Positions 4,656 through 35,009 are shown, counted from the first letter of the stretch. The stretch: DNA of 64,000 bases from Candidatus Latescibacterota bacterium (GCA_965198115.1 OZ240241.1:5472001-5536000); one strand, 5' to 3'. The notes: generated from the letters alone by a model not told the origin. A program made the numbers and translations.

Positions 4656-5494
4656 GTGTCTCGTCTCAGGAATAACTAGAAAAATTCGTGATACAGTCGT
4701 AAGGTTCCTCAGGCACTCATTGTGAGGAGGAACCGATGGCAAGAGGTCGTCCGTTACAACCACTGAACATCAGTGATGAAGTCCGCGATCAACTCCAGTC
4801 GTTGTCCGGTTCGCGCAGCATGCCTCACGCTCTGGTGCGTCGGGCGAAGATCGTCCTGCTGAGCGATGGTGGTCTGACCAATCAGGAGATCGCCGAACGA
4901 GTCGGGTTGTCCGGAGCGTCCGTTGGCAAATGGCGCCGTCGCTTCTGCGAGCAAGGCTTGATGGGACTGTATGACGAGTTACGTCCTGGTGGTCCGCGGT
5001 CCGTTAGCGACGAAGAGATCTCCTCACTCATCTACAAGACGCTCAAGAAGAAGCCGAAGAGTGCCACCCACTGGACCTGTCGAGCGATGGCCGATGAGAC
5101 GGGCCTCTCAAAGTCCACAGTGCAACGTGTATGGAGAGCCTTTGGACTGCAGCCGCATCGTCAGAAGCACTTCAAGCTGTCGAACGATCCCTTCTTCGTC
5201 GAGACAGTCAGGGATATCGTCGGTTTATACCTGAACCCGCCGGACAACGCAATGGTGCTCTGCATAGACGAGAAGAGCCAGATTCAAGCACTCGAACGGA
5301 CGCAACCGATTCTCCCTTTGGGCCTCGGGTATGTCGAGGGCGTCACTCACAGCTATACACGGCACGGCACGACTACCCTCTTTGCGGCGCTCAACATCGC
5401 ATCAGGAAAAGTCCTGACTCAGTGCAAGCCCAGACATCGCAACAGAGAGTTCCTTCAGTTCCTCAAGCACATTGACAAAAACGTCCCAAAGGAT
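4656..5494 (+). mobile_element. IS630-family element, truncated by IS256
   Basis: Begins at a CTAG (TA target): TA|GTGTCTCGTC. No right end is present. Confidence 0.85.
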
Positions 5495-5503
5495 GAGCTA
5501 TAA
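4736..5503 (+). pseudogene. IS630 transposase, C-terminally truncated
   Basis: HTH, THWTCRAMA, LCIDEKSQIQALER and YTRHGTTTLFAAL; ends before the second catalytic Asp and the Glu. Confidence 0.85.
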
Positions 5504-6868
5504 TCAAAAGGTGTGGAAAAAGAGAAAGGGCGACCCTACCCTTCCCGTGAGATAGTTGATTCACACAAAACCGGGTGAGAGGCCCGGTTGGGAAGGAGGA
5601 TCGCCGTGAAGGAACATACGCATAGAGCCCCATTGAAGTCCATGCCGACGTGGGAGACGGTTGACGATTGGATCCGTGAAGAGATCCAAGGCCGGTTCCA
5701 GTCCATTCTGGAGGAGGAGGCGACCGCGTTCTTGGGCCGGTCGTGGTATGAGCGCCGAGCCGAGGTCGATAGCTCCACGGGCTACAGGAACGGCTACGGC
5801 AAGCCCCGGCGTCTCTCGACGAGCTGCGGAACGATCAAGGTCCGGCGTCCCCGGGTTCGTGGTCTGGAAGAGCGGTTTGAAAGCCGCATCCTCCCCCTGT
5901 TCGCCCGGAGAACCAGGGCCATTGGAGATCTGCTTCCCGACCTTTATCTCCACGGTCTCTCCCAGGGCGACTTCGAGTTGTCTTTGCGTGCGCTGCTCGG
6001 TGATGGCGCGCCGCTTTCGCCGACCTCGATCGCTCGTCTTCGAGGGAAGTGGGAGGTCGACTTCCAGGACTGGAAAGAAAGGCGTCTGGATAATCGCGAA
6101 CTGGTCTACGCCTGGGCTGATGGCATCTACGTCAAAGCCGGGCTCGAGCGCGAGAAGGCGTGTCTGCTGGTCGTGATCGGCGCGATGAGCGACGGCAGCA
6201 AGGAGATCCTGGCGATAGAACCCGGTTATCGAGAGTCTACAGAATCCTGGCTCACGGTGCTACGGGATCTCCGGGATCGCGGGCTCGAACATCCTGTCCT
6301 GATCGCCGCGGACGGGAATATGGGCATCTGGGCGGCCGTTGATCAGGTCTGGCCAGAGAGCCGGCAACAACGGTGCTGGAACCACAAGATCCTCAACGTG
6401 CTCGACAAGGTCGCCAAGCGTGCACAGGCTGAAGCCCGCGCACTGCTCGTCCAGATCCCCTATGCCGGCACGAAAAAGGAGGCCGAGAAGCTCCGGAAAC
6501 GCTTTGCCGCACGGTATCGCTCACAGTTCCCTGCCGCCGTGGAGACGCTCGAAAGAGACTGGGATCGGATGGTCACGTTCTACGACTTCCCGAAGGAACA
6601 CTGGAAACACCTGAGAACCACGAACGTCGTCGAGAGCCCCTTTGCTTCCGTTCGGCTTCGCACAAACGCCGCCAGGCGATTCAAGAAAGTCAGGAACGCC
6701 ACGGCTCTCATCTGGCGTACGCTCAAGGTCGCAGAGAGCCGATTCAGGAAACTCACCGCGCCACACTTGCTACAACAAGTCTACGATCAGAAACACTCAA
6801 CCGGACCGCAGGTCGAAACCGGGAAGATGGCCGCCTGATTTCTTTTACACACCTATTGACCTGAGCTC
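5495..6868 (+). mobile_element. IS256-family element
   Basis: Terminal IRs GAGCTATAATCAAAAGGTGTGGAAAA vs GAGCTCAGGTCAATAGGTGTGTAAAA (20/26 match). No target duplication. Confidence 0.9.
5588..6838 (+). CDS. IS256 (mutator) transposase
   Basis: YRNGY, WADGIY, ADG, QRCWNH and LRTTNVVES motifs. Confidence 0.93.
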   Translation: MGRRIAVKEHTHRAPLKSMPTWETVDDWIREEIQGRFQSILEEEATAFLGRSWYERRAEVDSSTGYRNGYGKPRRLSTSCGTIKVRRPRVRGLEERFESRILPLFARRTRAIGDLLPDLYLHGLSQGDFELSLRALLGDGAPLSPTSIARLRGKWEVDFQDWKERRLDNRELVYAWADGIYVKAGLEREKACLLVVIGAMSDGSKEILAIEPGYRESTESWLTVLRDLRDRGLEHPVLIAADGNMGIWAAVDQVWPESRQQRCWNHKILNVLDKVAKRAQAEARALLVQIPYAGTKKEAEKLRKRFAARYRSQFPAAVETLERDWDRMVTFYDFPKEHWKHLRTTNVVESPFASVRLRTNAARRFKKVRNATALIWRTLKVAESRFRKLTAPHLLQQVYDQKHSTGPQVETGKMAA

Positions 6869-7351
6869 CAACTAAAATGAGTGCGCCTGACTCCAACAGT
6901 GTGTCAAATCAGCTTCCCCCAAACACAGTCGCGAACCGGAGAAAGTCCGCGAAATCGACCCGACCGCTTTCATCCAGATCGAACAGCTCCTCTGTGGAAC
7001 CGAATGCGGGCGCAAAAAGGAGGAAATCATTGAAGTCGACGCCCCCGCTTGCGTCGAAATCTCCGGTTCTCGGTTCTTCTATCGAGCCCACCAATGACAG
7101 GACCATTTCGATCGTGCGGTCGATCTGAGGTCGACTCCTCGGACTCTCGAACCGCAGGATCCCCTCGGGATCCACCACCCACAGTCCATCGACCGCCCCC
7201 TTCGAAAGCACACCCAGGGCGTCAGACGCTCTCATCAACAGCGGGAAACTGACTTGCGTCACCTGCTGGTAGAGCCTCAGCTGTGTCGCACTCCCATTCC
7301 ACACGTCCATACCCAACACCTGGATCTTCCGGGAGTCGATGGCGTTCCAGA

Positions 7352-7394
7352 TCTGCGATTCTACGGACGGACCCGTCCCGAAGCAGAGGTGTCA
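7352..7394 (-). promoter_or_regulatory. Sec UGA codon plus bacterial SECIS element
   Basis: UGA-CACCUCUGCUUCG-GGACG-GGUC-CGUCC-GUAGAAUCGCAGA; apical loop at +19..+22 after the UGA. Confidence 0.8.
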
Positions 7395-7474
7395 GTCGTA
7401 GCCCATCAAGTAGAGAACCAGAACTTTGCCCCTGAACTCAGACGGCGTGTAGATCTCGCCATCGAGGGCCCTTA

Positions 7475-8768
7475 GGGTTTGCCACGAAATAAGTGCTGCA
7501 CTTTTCAAGGTAATGATCTTACGCTCGGAGTGTGGACGTCGAAACTCTCCGAACGAAGTATGAAGCCTTGGCTCCGGTGCTGACGGAACGCACGCGTCGT
7601 CTGTGGGCCGCCACGGAAGCCGAAGCGTTGGGTCACGGTGGGATCGCGATTGTGGCTCTGGCGACAGGAATGTCCAGAGAGCGGATCTTTCGTGGCATTC
7701 AGGAGTTGAGGTCGGACGAACCTTTGGACCCGGCTCGCATCCGGCGTCCAGGCGGCGGTCGTAAGCGGAAGGCCGACACGGACCCGACGCTGTGGCAGGA
7801 CCTGAATGATCTGGTCGAGCCAACGACTGCGGGGTCGCCTGACGACAATCCTCTGAGATGGACATCGAAGAGCACTCGCAAACTGGCCGCCGAGTTGCAA
7901 GCGATGGGGCATTCGGTGAGCCCCAGGATCGTTGCCAATCTCCTGCACGAACACGATTACACGCTGCAGGCGAATCGGAAGACAAGGGAGGGATCTGCAC
8001 ACCCGGATCGGGACGCTCAGTTCGTTTACCTCGATGATCGGATTAGCCAGCAGCAGCAGCAGGGCCTTCCCGTTATCTCGGTGGACACCAAGAAGAAAGA
8101 GTTGATCGGCGACTTCAAGAATCCTGGCCGAGAATGGCGACCCAAGGGAGACCCGGAGCGTGTGAAGGTACACGATTTCATAGTGCCTGCTCAGGGCAAG
8201 GCGATCCCTTATGGAGTGTATGATCTGAGCCGTGATGAAGGCTGGGTAAGTGTCGGTATCGATCACGACACGGCCAGCTTCGCCGTGAATGCGATCCGAA
8301 GTTGGTGGAAGAACATGGGACGGCCCGCCTACGGCACTTCGACGCATCTGCTAATCACGGCGGACGCAGGCGGCAGCAACGGCGCCAAGACGCGGCTGTG
8401 GAAGTGGGAGCTGCAGCGCTTTGCGAATCGCACTGGCCTGACGATCACCGTATGCCACTACCCTCCTGGCACTAGTAAGTGGAACAAGATCGAACATCGC
8501 CTGTTCTCCTTCATCGCTATGAACTGGCGAGGCAAGCCCCTGGTCAGCCTGGCTGCAACCGTGAATCTCATTGCCGGAACGACCACTCAAGCCGGTCTCC
8601 GAGTACGCTCCGAGATCGACAAGCGACCCTACCCTAACGGGGTCAAGGTGACCGATGAACAGATGACCCAAATCGATCTCACTCCGCACGATTTCCACGG
8701 CGACTGGAACTACACGATCCGGCCAATGGCTCAACATTGAGATCGACCGTTTATTTATTCGCGAACCC
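7475..8768 (+). mobile_element. ISAzo13-family element, copy 1
   Basis: Ends GGGTTTGCC...GCGAACCC; TTA duplicated at 7472-7474 and 8769-8771. Confidence 0.92.
7532..8740 (+). CDS. ISAzo13 transposase
   Basis: LRWTSKS, ISVDTKKKELIG, TADAGGSNG, PPGTSKWNKIEHRLF and FHGDWNY motifs. Confidence 0.95.
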   Translation: MDVETLRTKYEALAPVLTERTRRLWAATEAEALGHGGIAIVALATGMSRERIFRGIQELRSDEPLDPARIRRPGGGRKRKADTDPTLWQDLNDLVEPTTAGSPDDNPLRWTSKSTRKLAAELQAMGHSVSPRIVANLLHEHDYTLQANRKTREGSAHPDRDAQFVYLDDRISQQQQQGLPVISVDTKKKELIGDFKNPGREWRPKGDPERVKVHDFIVPAQGKAIPYGVYDLSRDEGWVSVGIDHDTASFAVNAIRSWWKNMGRPAYGTSTHLLITADAGGSNGAKTRLWKWELQRFANRTGLTITVCHYPPGTSKWNKIEHRLFSFIAMNWRGKPLVSLAATVNLIAGTTTQAGLRVRSEIDKRPYPNGVKVTDEQMTQIDLTPHDFHGDWNYTIRPMAQH

Positions 8769-9001
8769 TTAGTGCAAACTGAGGCACCGGCTCTCCGACA
8801 TCGGCAGCAATCGGGGTCGACAACAGGACAGCAACGAGCAGACTGCTCAAAAAACGTCGACTGCACAGCTTCATAGGCCATCATCCATTCCCCCGGCATT
8901 CATGGGAACGGTAGAAGAATACGCCTCGTGGTTGGAGATATCAACTCGGCAGGCCACAAGGGCGAAGCCGTCGTCCGCCCACCGCCGACAGCCGATCGGC
9001 T

Positions 9002-10005
9002 TCACCGCCATACGTAGTCCGGTTCCCCTTCATCAAAACGCTGCGCCGAAGCCATCATCGCTGCCAGGTCGCCCTTCGGCCGGTAGCCGATCAACGATTT
9101 AGCCTTCCCGATGGCGTGGTCGTAAATGGATCGGACCGGCAATCTGATCTCCAACGGATCCATTTGTTTGATCTCGCCAAGCAGTCCGGCGCCCTCCGTA
9201 AACGAAAGGGCGCAGGCGCACCGCCGTTGAACGCTTCCCCCAGAGCGGCGTTTGACTCGACCGCGCAAACGAGGCAATGCGCGATGTCCCGGGCGTCGTT
9301 CGGCTGATACATCCACGGTCTGCCGTCCAGATCGGTGACCGCACACGGCTGATCCGGGCCTGACGCGGCTTCTTCCACCTGATGCCACAACTCGGTCCCA
9401 TCCGCCATATAGAGCTCGGTCCCCGGTCGTTGTCCGCGCTGCAGCAGTGACACGACGCGGGCAACCGTGAACTGTCCGTAGATCTTCGTCTCCGACAGAA
9501 CGTGACTCGGCCGCACGATCGAGATCCTGAGCCCCGTTTCTCGCGCCGTCCGCTCCGCCAGCAACTCGCCGATGTACTTCGAAAGAGAATATTCGTTGTC
9601 CGGACGCTTCGGATGAAGCTCGTCCACCGGATGGTAGGCGCAGGCGATATTCTCGCCGTTGTTGGGATAAACACCGGACGACGAAACGTAGACGTAGCGG
9701 TCCAGCTTGTCCGCGAACTCGCCGCACGCACGCGCCACCTGCAAATTGGTCGTGACGTTGTTTTCAAAATGCGGTCCCACGAGATTGGCCGTATGAATAA
9801 CCGCATCGACGCCGTCGACCGCTTCCGTCACGAAGTCGAGATCGGTCAAATCACCTTCACGACGCTCGATATCCAGACCCGCGATACGATCCGCGGCCGG
9901 GTCATCGGGCAACAGCGTCCCGCGAATCTCGTTGTTCCCGACCAACAGCTGGCGCACCAGCCGGCATCCGACCTGACCCGCGACACCCGTGATCAGAATC
10001 TTCAT
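9002..10005 (-). CDS. NAD-dependent epimerase/dehydratase (frameshift near 9200)
   Basis: ILITGVAGQVG, SSSGVY and YSLSK; the C-terminus (KAKSLIGYRP) continues in another frame to 9002. Confidence 0.85.
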
Positions 10006-33136: not shown

Positions 33137-33601
33137 GTGGACTACGACATACGCCGAATCGGACTCGAAGACATCGACACATTCATTCACTTTCGAGAAT
33201 GTATGTTCAGGGAAGTCGGCTTGGGCGACGGCGTGGAGGCAATGAGCCGTGACAGCGTGAGCTATTTCGAAGAGAAGATTCCAACAGATGAGTTCGTTGG
33301 CTGGCTGGCCGAAACGCCCGACGGCAAAGCCGCGGCGTCAGCCGGCCTGTCGATCTACCACCTCTCCCCCAAGCCGATGAACATCCGCGGGAAGTACGGC
33401 TACGTTTCCAGCTTCTACACGATGGAACCCCACCGTCGCAGAGGCCTTGCCAAACGGCTGCTCGACGAGGTGATTGGTTACGCGCGTCAGATCGAACTTC
33501 CAGTCTTGAAACTCCACGCCTCGCCCTACGGAAAACCGATCTATTTGGAAGCGGGCTTTGAGGATCTGAATGAAATGGGGTTAGGGTTCGCGAATAAATA
33601 A
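33137..33601 (+). CDS. GNAT N-acetyltransferase (last codons supplied by the IS)
   Basis: HRRRGLAKRL and LHASPYGKPIYLEAGF. Confidence 0.85.
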   Translation: MDYDIRRIGLEDIDTFIHFRECMFREVGLGDGVEAMSRDSVSYFEEKIPTDEFVGWLAETPDGKAAASAGLSIYHLSPKPMNIRGKYGYVSSFYTMEPHRRRGLAKRLLDEVIGYARQIELPVLKLHASPYGKPIYLEAGFEDLNEMGLGFANK

Positions 33602-34876
33602 CGGTCGATCTCAATGTTGAGCCATTGGCCGGATCGTGTAGTTCCAGTCGCCGTGGAAATCGTGCGGAGTGAGATCGATTTGGGTCATCTGTTCATCGGT
33701 CACCTTGACCCCGTTAGGGTAGGGTCGCTTGTCGATCTCGGAGCGTACTCGGAGACCGGCTTGAGTGGTCGTTCCGGCAATGAGATTCACGGTTGCAGCC
33801 AGGCTGACCAGGGGCTTGCCTCGCCAGTTCATAGCGATGAAGGAGAACAGGCGATGTTCGATCTTGTTCCACTTACTAGTGCCAGGAGGGTAGTGGCATA
33901 CGGTGATCGTCAGGCCAGTGCGATTCGCAAAGCGCTGCAGCTCCCACTTCCACAGCCGCGTCTTGGCGCCGTTGCTGCCGCCTGCGTCCGCCGTGATTAG
34001 CAGATGCGTCGAAGTGCCGTAGGCGGGCCGTCCCATGTTCTTCCACCAACTTCGGATCGCATTCACGGCGAAGCTGGCCGTGTCGTGATCGATACCGACA
34101 CTTACCCAGCCTTCATCACGGCTCAGATCATACACTCCATAAGGGATCGCCTTGCCCTGAGCAGGCACTATGAAATCGTGTACCTTCACACGCTCCGGGT
34201 CTCCCTTGGGTCGCCATTCTCGGCCAGGATTCTTGAAGTCGCCGATCAACTCTTTCTTCTTGGTGTCCACCGAGATAACGGGAAGGCCCTGCTGCTGCTG
34301 CTGGCTAATCCGATCATCGAGGTAAACGAACTGAGCGTCCCGATCCGGGTGTGCAGATCCCTCCCTTGTCTTCCGATTCGCCTGCAGCGTGTAATCGTGT
34401 TCGTGCAGGAGATTGGCAACGATCCTGGGGCTCACCGAATGCCCCATCGCTTGCAACTCGGCGGCCAGTTTGCGAGTGCTCTTCGATGTCCATCTCAGAG
34501 GATTGTCGTCAGGCGACCCCGCAGTCGTTGGCTCGACCAGATCATTCAGGTCCTGCCACAGCGTCGGGTCCGTGTCGGCCTTCCGCTTACGACCGCCGCC
34601 TGGACGCCGGATGCGAGCCGGGTCCAAAGGTTCGTCCGACCTCAACTCCTGAATGCCACGAAAGATCCGCTCTCTGGACATTCCTGTCGCCAGAGCCACA
34701 ATCGCGATCCCACCGTGACCCAACGCTTCGGCTTCCGTGGCGGCCCACAGACGACGCGTGCGTTCCGTCAGCACCGGAGCCAAGGCTTCATACTTCGTTC
34801 GGAGAGTTTCGACGTCCACACTCCGAGCGTAAGATCATTACCTTGAAAAGTGCAGCACTTATTTCGTGGCAAACCC
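33584..34876 (-). mobile_element. ISAzo13-family element, copy 2 (inverted)
   Basis: Reverse complement of copy 1 except for a 1-nt homopolymer difference; TTA duplicated at 33581-33583 and 34877-34879. Confidence 0.92.
33611..34819 (-). CDS. ISAzo13 transposase
   Basis: Protein identical to 7532-8740. Confidence 0.95.
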   Translation of the reverse strand: MDVETLRTKYEALAPVLTERTRRLWAATEAEALGHGGIAIVALATGMSRERIFRGIQELRSDEPLDPARIRRPGGGRKRKADTDPTLWQDLNDLVEPTTAGSPDDNPLRWTSKSTRKLAAELQAMGHSVSPRIVANLLHEHDYTLQANRKTREGSAHPDRDAQFVYLDDRISQQQQQGLPVISVDTKKKELIGDFKNPGREWRPKGDPERVKVHDFIVPAQGKAIPYGVYDLSRDEGWVSVGIDHDTASFAVNAIRSWWKNMGRPAYGTSTHLLITADAGGSNGAKTRLWKWELQRFANRTGLTITVCHYPPGTSKWNKIEHRLFSFIAMNWRGKPLVSLAATVNLIAGTTTQAGLRVRSEIDKRPYPNGVKVTDEQMTQIDLTPHDFHGDWNYTIRPMAQH

Positions 34877-35009
34877 TTAGTATTGTAAAAATCGATTGGT
34901 GGCATACCATTTGCCCTGCGTTGCTACGAGCGGGCGAGATGGCGAGCAGACGTGGCGATTGCTTTCGCCAAATCGCTTGGGATCAGCACTCATAGCGACG
35001 GGGGGATAG

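Follow-up and report, generated by a model that had tools for sequence, protein, structure and literature searches.

The locus described here is read, with slightly better than even confidence, as an insertion sequence (IS)-interrupted and probably dead gene for an exported selenocysteine (Sec) redoxin of the UxxC type, whose dockerin tail would place it on T9SS-displayed cohesin scaffolds. It lies within a 64,000-nucleotide stretch of DNA, hereafter the window, from the genome of a Candidatus Latescibacterota bacterium (8.43 Mb, single contig). Positions are counted from the first letter of the window, whereas coordinates marked G000:C1 refer to the whole contig. Comparison with relatives across the phylum places it in a selenoprotein subfamily that is well supported and likely to be located at the surface.

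The gene runs on the minus strand in two pieces (Table 1). Excision of positions 7473-8769 yields a single 669-nt frame of 222 codons plus stop, in which the sole internal stop is the TGA at codon 62 (7394-7392), followed by H-L-C. This reproduces the joined 222-codon frame that the original prediction had obtained by removing the ISAzo13 element and one TTA copy. The split frame is not a product of chance, because relatives hold the same gene uninterrupted, and two of these (L080, with TGA, and L060, with Cys) share the same short layout of signal peptide, redoxin, and tail. The 5' piece shows 74% DNA identity with the uninterrupted paralog at 7.692 Mb.

Table 1. Features of the interrupted redoxin gene and its insertion element in the window
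Feature	Position	Strand	Basis
5' piece (codons 1-35), with the first redoxin strand after a predicted Sec-pathway signal peptide (residues 1 to about 24)	8770..8874	-	Translation; 10-residue hydrophobicity 2.76
Redoxin domain of thioredoxin fold, from codon 36 to about codon 162, with G-x-x-U-x-x-C and G-x-D-x-W/Y-x-G	7092..7472	-	PF00578 E 7.7e-5
TGA at codon 62, in frame; predicted Sec residue opening the UxxC motif	7392..7394	-	TGA at 59 and Cys at 6 of 65 aligned sites
Predicted SECIS of bacterial type, upper stem-loop: GGUC loop on a 5-bp stem, 18 nt from UGA	7365..7378	-	Agrees with published consensus
Predicted dockerin tail, two calcium-loop repeats, invariant Asp at 1 and 12	6912..7064	-	Profile match 2y3n_B; loop columns
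Terminal TGA, true stop	6909..6911	-	Homologs terminate within a few residues of the same point
ISAzo13-family insertion sequence, 1294 bp	7475..8768	+	Genome copies; contig depth
ISAzo13 transposase, 402 aa	7532..8740	+	NF033519 574 bits (cut-off 200); PF07592 467 bits
TTA target duplication, left copy	7472..7474	+	Sequence
TTA target duplication, right copy	8769..8771	+	Sequence

The interrupting element belongs to the ISAzo13 family by its transposase model, its terminal inverted repeats, and its short target duplication. The genome contains 83 matches to it, 73 of them aligning over at least 1250 nt, all at more than 99% identity. A perfect 3-bp duplication, nearly always TTA or TAA, flanks 34 of the 47 copies that have both ends. 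Short-read contigs are identical to the stretch, with a depth of about 700 over the element against 15 in the flanks (about 47x); the junction contigs reach only 24-26 letters into the IS side, and both read runs derive from one sample, which may be the source of the genome. Other mobile elements also occur in the window. A further copy of the same ISAzo13 element lies at about 33583-34877 (G000:C1:5505583-5506877), and an IS256 transposase (5588-6838, +), adjoined by a piece of an IS630 transposase (4736-5503, +), finishes 70 bp beyond the stop of the gene.

Six copies of the gene are present in this genome, five damaged and one intact. The intact copy, located at G000:C1:121 kb and carrying two Ig repeats, would provide the function. 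A scan of the genome contigs with the window protein found no match. The closest paralog of the window copy is that at 7.692 Mb (83% identical in DNA along the 3' part), which has a frameshift as well as an IS256-type element at its 5' end. Among the remaining damaged copies, two are frameshifted and one is without its 5' part. An assembly error was considered for the 7.692-Mb frameshift and rejected, as a short-read contig spans the site gap-free. The IS256-type element cutting the first codons of this paralog (L101 ~3477; G000:C1:7692477) supplies an in-frame ATG from its own end.

The window copy is most likely a recent pseudogene. The IS parts the promoter and signal peptide from the rest, and the copy would, with high probability, yield no product. 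Alternatively, the element could act as a reversible switch: by excising precisely, it would restore the gene in some cells of the population. Both gene pieces are in frame and free of other lesions, as would suit such a switch, yet no contig joint omits the element (among short-read contigs of one sample, which drop rare variants), and its 73 near-full, near-identical copies resemble the outcome of a recent burst. A switch is considered highly improbable.

The in-frame UGA is very likely read as selenocysteine. This genome carries selA (565 bits), selB (347), selD (363), and the tRNA-Sec gene selC (74.6), every one above cut-off. The genes selA, selB, and selC form one cluster, and selD has its own in-frame TGA and GGUC-loop hairpin. 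Across the 168 genomes of the phylum, 104 have a match to the redoxin domain, all inside one class of 132. Of these 104 gene-bearing genomes, 102 possess selA, and the remaining two consist of 430 and 820 contigs. Seven class genomes are without selA, five of which are also without a redoxin match.

Among the 150 phylum matches listed, beyond which there are 18 more, 144 have an in-frame TGA, five have no stop, and one has TAA. Reading of 65 distinct aligned sites gave 59 TGA, 6 Cys (TGT or TGC), and 0 Trp, although the relatives are kin and such counts overstate independence. A quick unrooted tree requires five changes for its five Cys rows. The original prediction depended on homologs having neither Trp nor a true stop at this position and on the presence of Sec machinery; the site counts and the gene complement agree with it. 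A contrasting explanation treats the UGA as a real stop or a Trp codon in a decayed Cys redoxin gene, as might be expected in a genome full of broken genes where five of six copies are damaged. This is exceedingly improbable. TGA occurs at one position across four families (f1 to f4), aligned with Cys only, and hairpins are in excess after these TGAs. Moreover, TGA does not encode Trp here, because the gene itself ends on TGA. With the UGA taken as selenocysteine, SelB would almost certainly read the hairpin and insert Sec, after which the selenolate would attack and Cys65 would resolve.

Several side observations concern the wider use of Sec. Tandem arrays with adjacent Sec and Cys paralogs occur at L028/L060 (G036), L058 (G082), and L080 (G079), and such side-by-side pairs possibly hedge against selenium shortage. 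Within this genome, likely selenoprotein genes include a UGC-motif redoxin between selB and the tRNA-Sec gene (G000:C1:3586006, -), a Prx-like UxxC protein (G000:C1:6232016, -), a formate dehydrogenase (G000:C1:1088596, -), and selD (G000:C1:4008906, +). The underlying selenoproteome screen was quick and is no census: it kept 15 candidates, several of them clearly false, and missed selD.

The hairpin following the UGA has the form GGACG/GGUC/CGUCC, with its loop at +19 to +22. It agrees at every point with the bacterial SECIS consensus given in a 2026 review (PMC13188914). The loop has 4 nt (consensus 3-9 nt) and begins with GG (G in the first two loop positions), the stem has 5 bp (at least 4 bp), the spacing from the UGA is 18 nt (16-37 nt), and the MFE is -14.2 (at or below -7.5). 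The GGUC loop that the original prediction gave for E. coli fdhF at the same offset is indeed found there, beginning at +19 as well (NC_000913.3).

Conservation of the hairpin was assessed with the protein sequence held fixed and synonymous codons redrawn 300 times, counting structures of the consensus type with a spacing of 16-21 nt and an energy at or below -3 kcal/mol (both our own settings). Such hairpins follow 49 of the 59 TGAs, compared with 9.2 expected from the shuffles. Individually, 42 of the 59 TGA sites reach p 0.05, and the window copy stands at p 0.04. The Gly codon at +7 is GGT in 38 of 40 cases, against 411 of 1789 elsewhere within these genes. Conservation exceeds what the protein sequence explains, and the dependence of the original prediction on a conserved hairpin is borne out. 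The hairpin is also kept in three of six Cys paralogs (0.7 expected), as might be expected after recent reversions. In one register, pair covariation reached 0.142, no better than the 0.146 of a slid control; subgroups pair in different registers. Rfam gave no match within 6800-9100.

The head of the protein is a redoxin that fits no curated seleno-redoxin model. PF00578 exceeds its cut-off in at least 12 of 13 full-length homologs, mostly together with PF08534; the window match (Table 1) falls just under the cut-off because its first strand is cut off. The nearest solved structures by sequence are 2ls5, 3kcm, 3hdc, and ResA. The TGA had been placed at the first Cys of the TlpA/ResA motif, a resemblance that holds only in part, as the cis-proline position is occupied by Asp in the window copy. 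Pro occurs there in 1 of 49 rows parsed, and alignment column 94 contains D in 16, E in 16, and H in 8 of 52 rows, with Pro in ResA, 3kcm, and 3hdc. A TlpA/ResA identity was rejected, with the cis-proline missing and the curated TlpA/ResA/DsbE models (NF002854, NF047696, TIGR00385) missed by far (best 61.8 of 170 bits). A peroxiredoxin identity was likewise rejected; the PxxxTxxU/C motif is absent, and Gly rather than Thr stands three residues ahead of Sec in 52 of 52 rows. A link to deiodinases was dropped, PF00837 matching 1 of 52 rows at E 0.056. None of the 13 full-length homologs scanned passes a curated NCBIfam seleno-redoxin model, and matches to TUGYCR (NF053656), WAxxUGC (NF041054), and PrxU (NF040737) are weak, at no more than 30 bits versus cut-offs of 100-300.

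Outside this subfamily, the G-x-x-C-x-x-C signature is found with Cys in 127 of the best 150 matches in a 50%-cluster library. The Sec form is thus the version that this lineage has of a more widespread exported redoxin, itself uncharacterised. A T9SS sorting domain (CTD; own profile) ends 59 of these best 150 matches. Three library relatives (P0111, P0130, and P0136) have AxxC where CxxC is usual, along with an end of the TWGxIK type; they are probably inactive or single-cysteine forms. In another variant, L086:563-2479 (G115), a beta-lactamase-fold serine hydrolase sits between the UxxC head and a CTD-like tail.

The absent cis-proline weakens the case for a classical disulfide-reductase role. 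Its replacement by Asp, Glu, or His, together with the weak matches to peroxiredoxin and deiodinase-related models, would accord with a protein that, at the same location, acts in a peroxidase-like way or binds metal instead of exchanging disulfides. This alternative is regarded as unlikely: all 52 rows retain the second Cys, the peroxiredoxin PxxxTxxU motif is lacking, and a ResA-type model is the best match in 48 of 52 rows.

The tail was classed as a dockerin by its two calcium loops, in which Asp at positions 1 and 12 is invariant in 37 of 37 rows, and by the helix segment after each loop. Compared with PDB sequences, the tail profile scores highest against the dockerin chain 2y3n_B, with a full-length match (E 1.7e-10) ahead of calmodulin-type ones. 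The best scores against curated dockerin models lie below cut-off (PF00404, 22.3 of 22.9 bits in one homolog; NF041540, 26.7 of 29 bits). A single-sequence fold prediction gave a pLDDT of 38, too low to use. In this genome, 61 ORFs carry the tail, 40 of which have the tail alone at the C-terminus. It is borne away from the C-terminus in 10 of 50 tail-only ORFs, and placements inside proteins and beside the signal peptide also occur. Judged from its profile and distribution, the tail is a general lineage-wide dockerin tag.

Cohesins are encoded in the same genome, with 12 matches, 10 of them over cut-off, and 17 ORFs detected by our own profile, which matches cellulosomal cohesins. Seven of these ORFs join a cohesin with a T9SS CTD, some bearing their own dockerin, and the scaffolds have 1-3 cohesins each along with a dockerin of their own. 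Comparison of the tail and cohesin profiles gave no homology, as expected. Large proteins ending in dockerin-cohesin-CTD or similar are located at G000:C1:6987369-6992345, 5024476-5027295, 7645438-7651818, and 8209469-8211505, and this ending recurs across f1-f4 genomes. Proteins with both dockerin and cohesin could polymerise into a surface mesh.

Components of the T9SS are also present. SprA passes TIGR04189 at 645 bits, sprA occurs in 130 of 132 class genomes, and eight PorV-family genes exceed the cut-off in this genome, with a PorU-like gene below it (207 of 420 bits). In many f4 genomes (e.g., G097:C2, G098:C1, G106:C1, and G157:C15), selA lies about 9-12 kb from sprA; the arrangement is otherwise in G000.

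The C-terminal end of the redoxin differs by family. The window gene has no T9SS C-terminal sorting domain, whereas homologs of the sister family f4 carry a CTD. The dockerin tail occurs in 45 redoxin rows, all of families f1-f3. From the 72 f4 matches, 15 rows were taken in hand-picked regions; a CTD ends 11 of these rows, SWGxxK ends two, and the other two are cut or frameshifted. TIGR04183 exceeds its cut-off in four of six f4 proteins scanned. Cohesins are found in 55 of 55 f1-f3 genomes versus 35 of 76 f4 genomes, and tail copies per genome mostly number at least 39 in f1-f3 and 1-25 in f4. Between 0 and 11 Ig repeats separate head and tail. A hydrophobic N-terminal stretch is present in 59 of 61 rows and a lipobox-like motif in 0 of 61.

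Export is predicted from the hydrophobic N-terminus and would in all probability proceed through the Sec pathway into the periplasm. Calcium-dependent binding of the dockerin to a cohesin on a CTD-bearing scaffold would then fairly probably place the redoxin at the surface, as the CTD would do directly for f4 homologs. A CTD-less passenger riding on a scaffold would be the simplest reading of outer-membrane crossing. Surface display via cohesin scaffolds is likely because the tail is swapped by family, ORFs combine cohesin with CTD, SprA and PorV are encoded, and cohesins are distributed as described. The earlier expectation of an exported, possibly Ca2+-binding or surface-anchored protein gains support, at the level of prediction, from the cohesin scaffolds, T9SS genes, and tail swap; it loses force for the window copy itself, which is probably a pseudogene.

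Two other placements were weighed against surface display on scaffolds. The selenoprotein might be periplasmic, acting like ResA/DsbE from the inside on cargo or on the cysteines of the DUF6029 barrel discussed below, with a tail that binds periplasmic cohesins or only calcium. The redoxin does lack its own CTD, its closest solved relatives include ResA, and gldM and gldN were not found in the genome, where the controls were likewise silent. On the other side, a CTD ends the f4 homologs and many Cys relatives (59 of 150, own profile), a stalk of 11 Ig repeats better suits a surface protein, and seven cohesin ORFs bear CTDs. A periplasmic location is hence rated as unlikely, while retaining appreciable weight. 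Alternatively, the tail might itself be an outer-membrane sorting signal for a PorV-type receptor, cohesin binding being secondary or absent. It occupies the place of the CTD in f4, and the genome has eight PorV-family genes and 40 proteins ending in the tail alone. This proposal is nonetheless quite improbable, since a solved dockerin is matched over the whole tail length, cohesins occur in all 55 genomes of the families that use the tail heavily, and the tail is also found internally or next to the signal peptide.

A candidate partner for a surface-displayed redoxin is the DUF6029 outer-membrane barrel, whose gene is found within the short flanks at 26 of the 55 loci. It lies upstream on the same strand in f1 and f2 and is convergent in f4. 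A CxxxxC motif close to the C-terminus is common to all 26 of these DUF6029 proteins. The genome studied here has two barrel genes, both intact and placed ahead of the two frameshifted redoxin copies of a 3.76-kb duplication; no barrel gene stands beside the window copy. One paper naming the domain suggests, in its available part, a function in polysaccharide export. The redoxin might, with somewhat less than even probability, trade electrons with the DUF6029 CxxxxC loop and keep surface proteins reduced or remove oxidants. A bolder and only tentative proposal, which we consider doubtful, is a class-wide selenium redox relay outside the outer membrane. The Sec redoxin would be displayed through a T9SS signal of its own or, in members that have a dockerin instead of that signal, aboard cohesin scaffolds exported by the T9SS, and it would exchange electrons with the DUF6029 CxxxxC loop.

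Known systems resemble this protein in part. Table 1 of PMC13188914 predicts UxxC classes termed "Prx-like thiol:disulfide oxidoreductase" (PF00578), "Redoxin family" (PF08534), and "thiol-disulfide isomerase-like" (cd02966). The thioredoxin fold, the PF00578/PF08534 match, the UxxC motif, and a SECIS after the UGA are shared with the gene described here, and full-length homologs qualify for the Prx-like and Redoxin classes by a Pfam match over cut-off plus UxxC. In contrast, the available part of that paper mentions neither dockerin, secretion, signal peptide, nor Latescibacterota. A 2008 ocean survey reported a UxxC redoxin fused to a C-terminal domain called unknown, without using the word dockerin. 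By our own reading of its supplement, that C-terminal region comprises acidic repeats and a paired calcium-loop, dockerin-like domain, and other survey entries have a CTD-like end and lack the cis-proline. Six motifs typical of the present subfamily are absent from the four supplements of the survey (Sec written as U).

ResA, TlpA, and DsbE are exported redoxins with a four-residue active site too, but the present protein has Sec for Cys, G-x-x rather than W-x-x-W ahead of the motif, no cis-proline, no membrane anchor, and a dockerin or CTD tail. The T9SS-CTD Cys redoxins of other bacteria share G-x-x-C-x-x-C, mostly Asp at the cis-proline position, and a signal peptide; they differ in having Cys for Sec and mostly a CTD for the dockerin, and are uncharacterised. 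One library cluster member is named as a redoxin of Ca. Marinimicrobia, and redoxin-dockerin clusters occur elsewhere too. The architecture, described in the original prediction as not recognised as characterised, is less unusual than thought, given the general tag, these clusters, and the 2008 survey fusion.

Cellulosome-like systems with CTD scaffolds have been inferred for Cloacimonadota, including Ca. Stygibacter (PMC8542988, available part), and one is cited for Latescibacteria (PMC7081726, available part). As in the present system, these sources describe proteins that have a signal peptide and a C-terminal dockerin, along with a cohesin scaffold that carries a CTD at its end, whereas the passengers described there are hydrolases, peptidases, and a halomucin-like protein rather than a redox selenoprotein. 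Selenoproteins exposed outside the cell are known from the SAO system, which occurs chiefly in Firmicutes (bioRxiv 2022.07.06.499078, available part). A literature search found no paper on this Latescibacterota UxxC redoxin family, with subscription papers and preprint supplements lying outside its scope.

The window locus is itself of lesser weight: insertion sequences have swept this genome, and the locus is a single damaged copy. The subfamily, which occurs in 104 of the 132 genomes of one class, would add to the bacterial selenoproteome a group that is named by no curated model and whose gene is split in two by ordinary gene calling. The exchange of T9SS signal and dockerin on the same head makes two questions testable, namely the surface route of dockerin proteins without a sorting domain in two-membrane cells and the electron supply to a surface redox protein. 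If the proposed relay were true, it would amount to piggyback export through the T9SS and to a first electron-transfer role for DUF6029.
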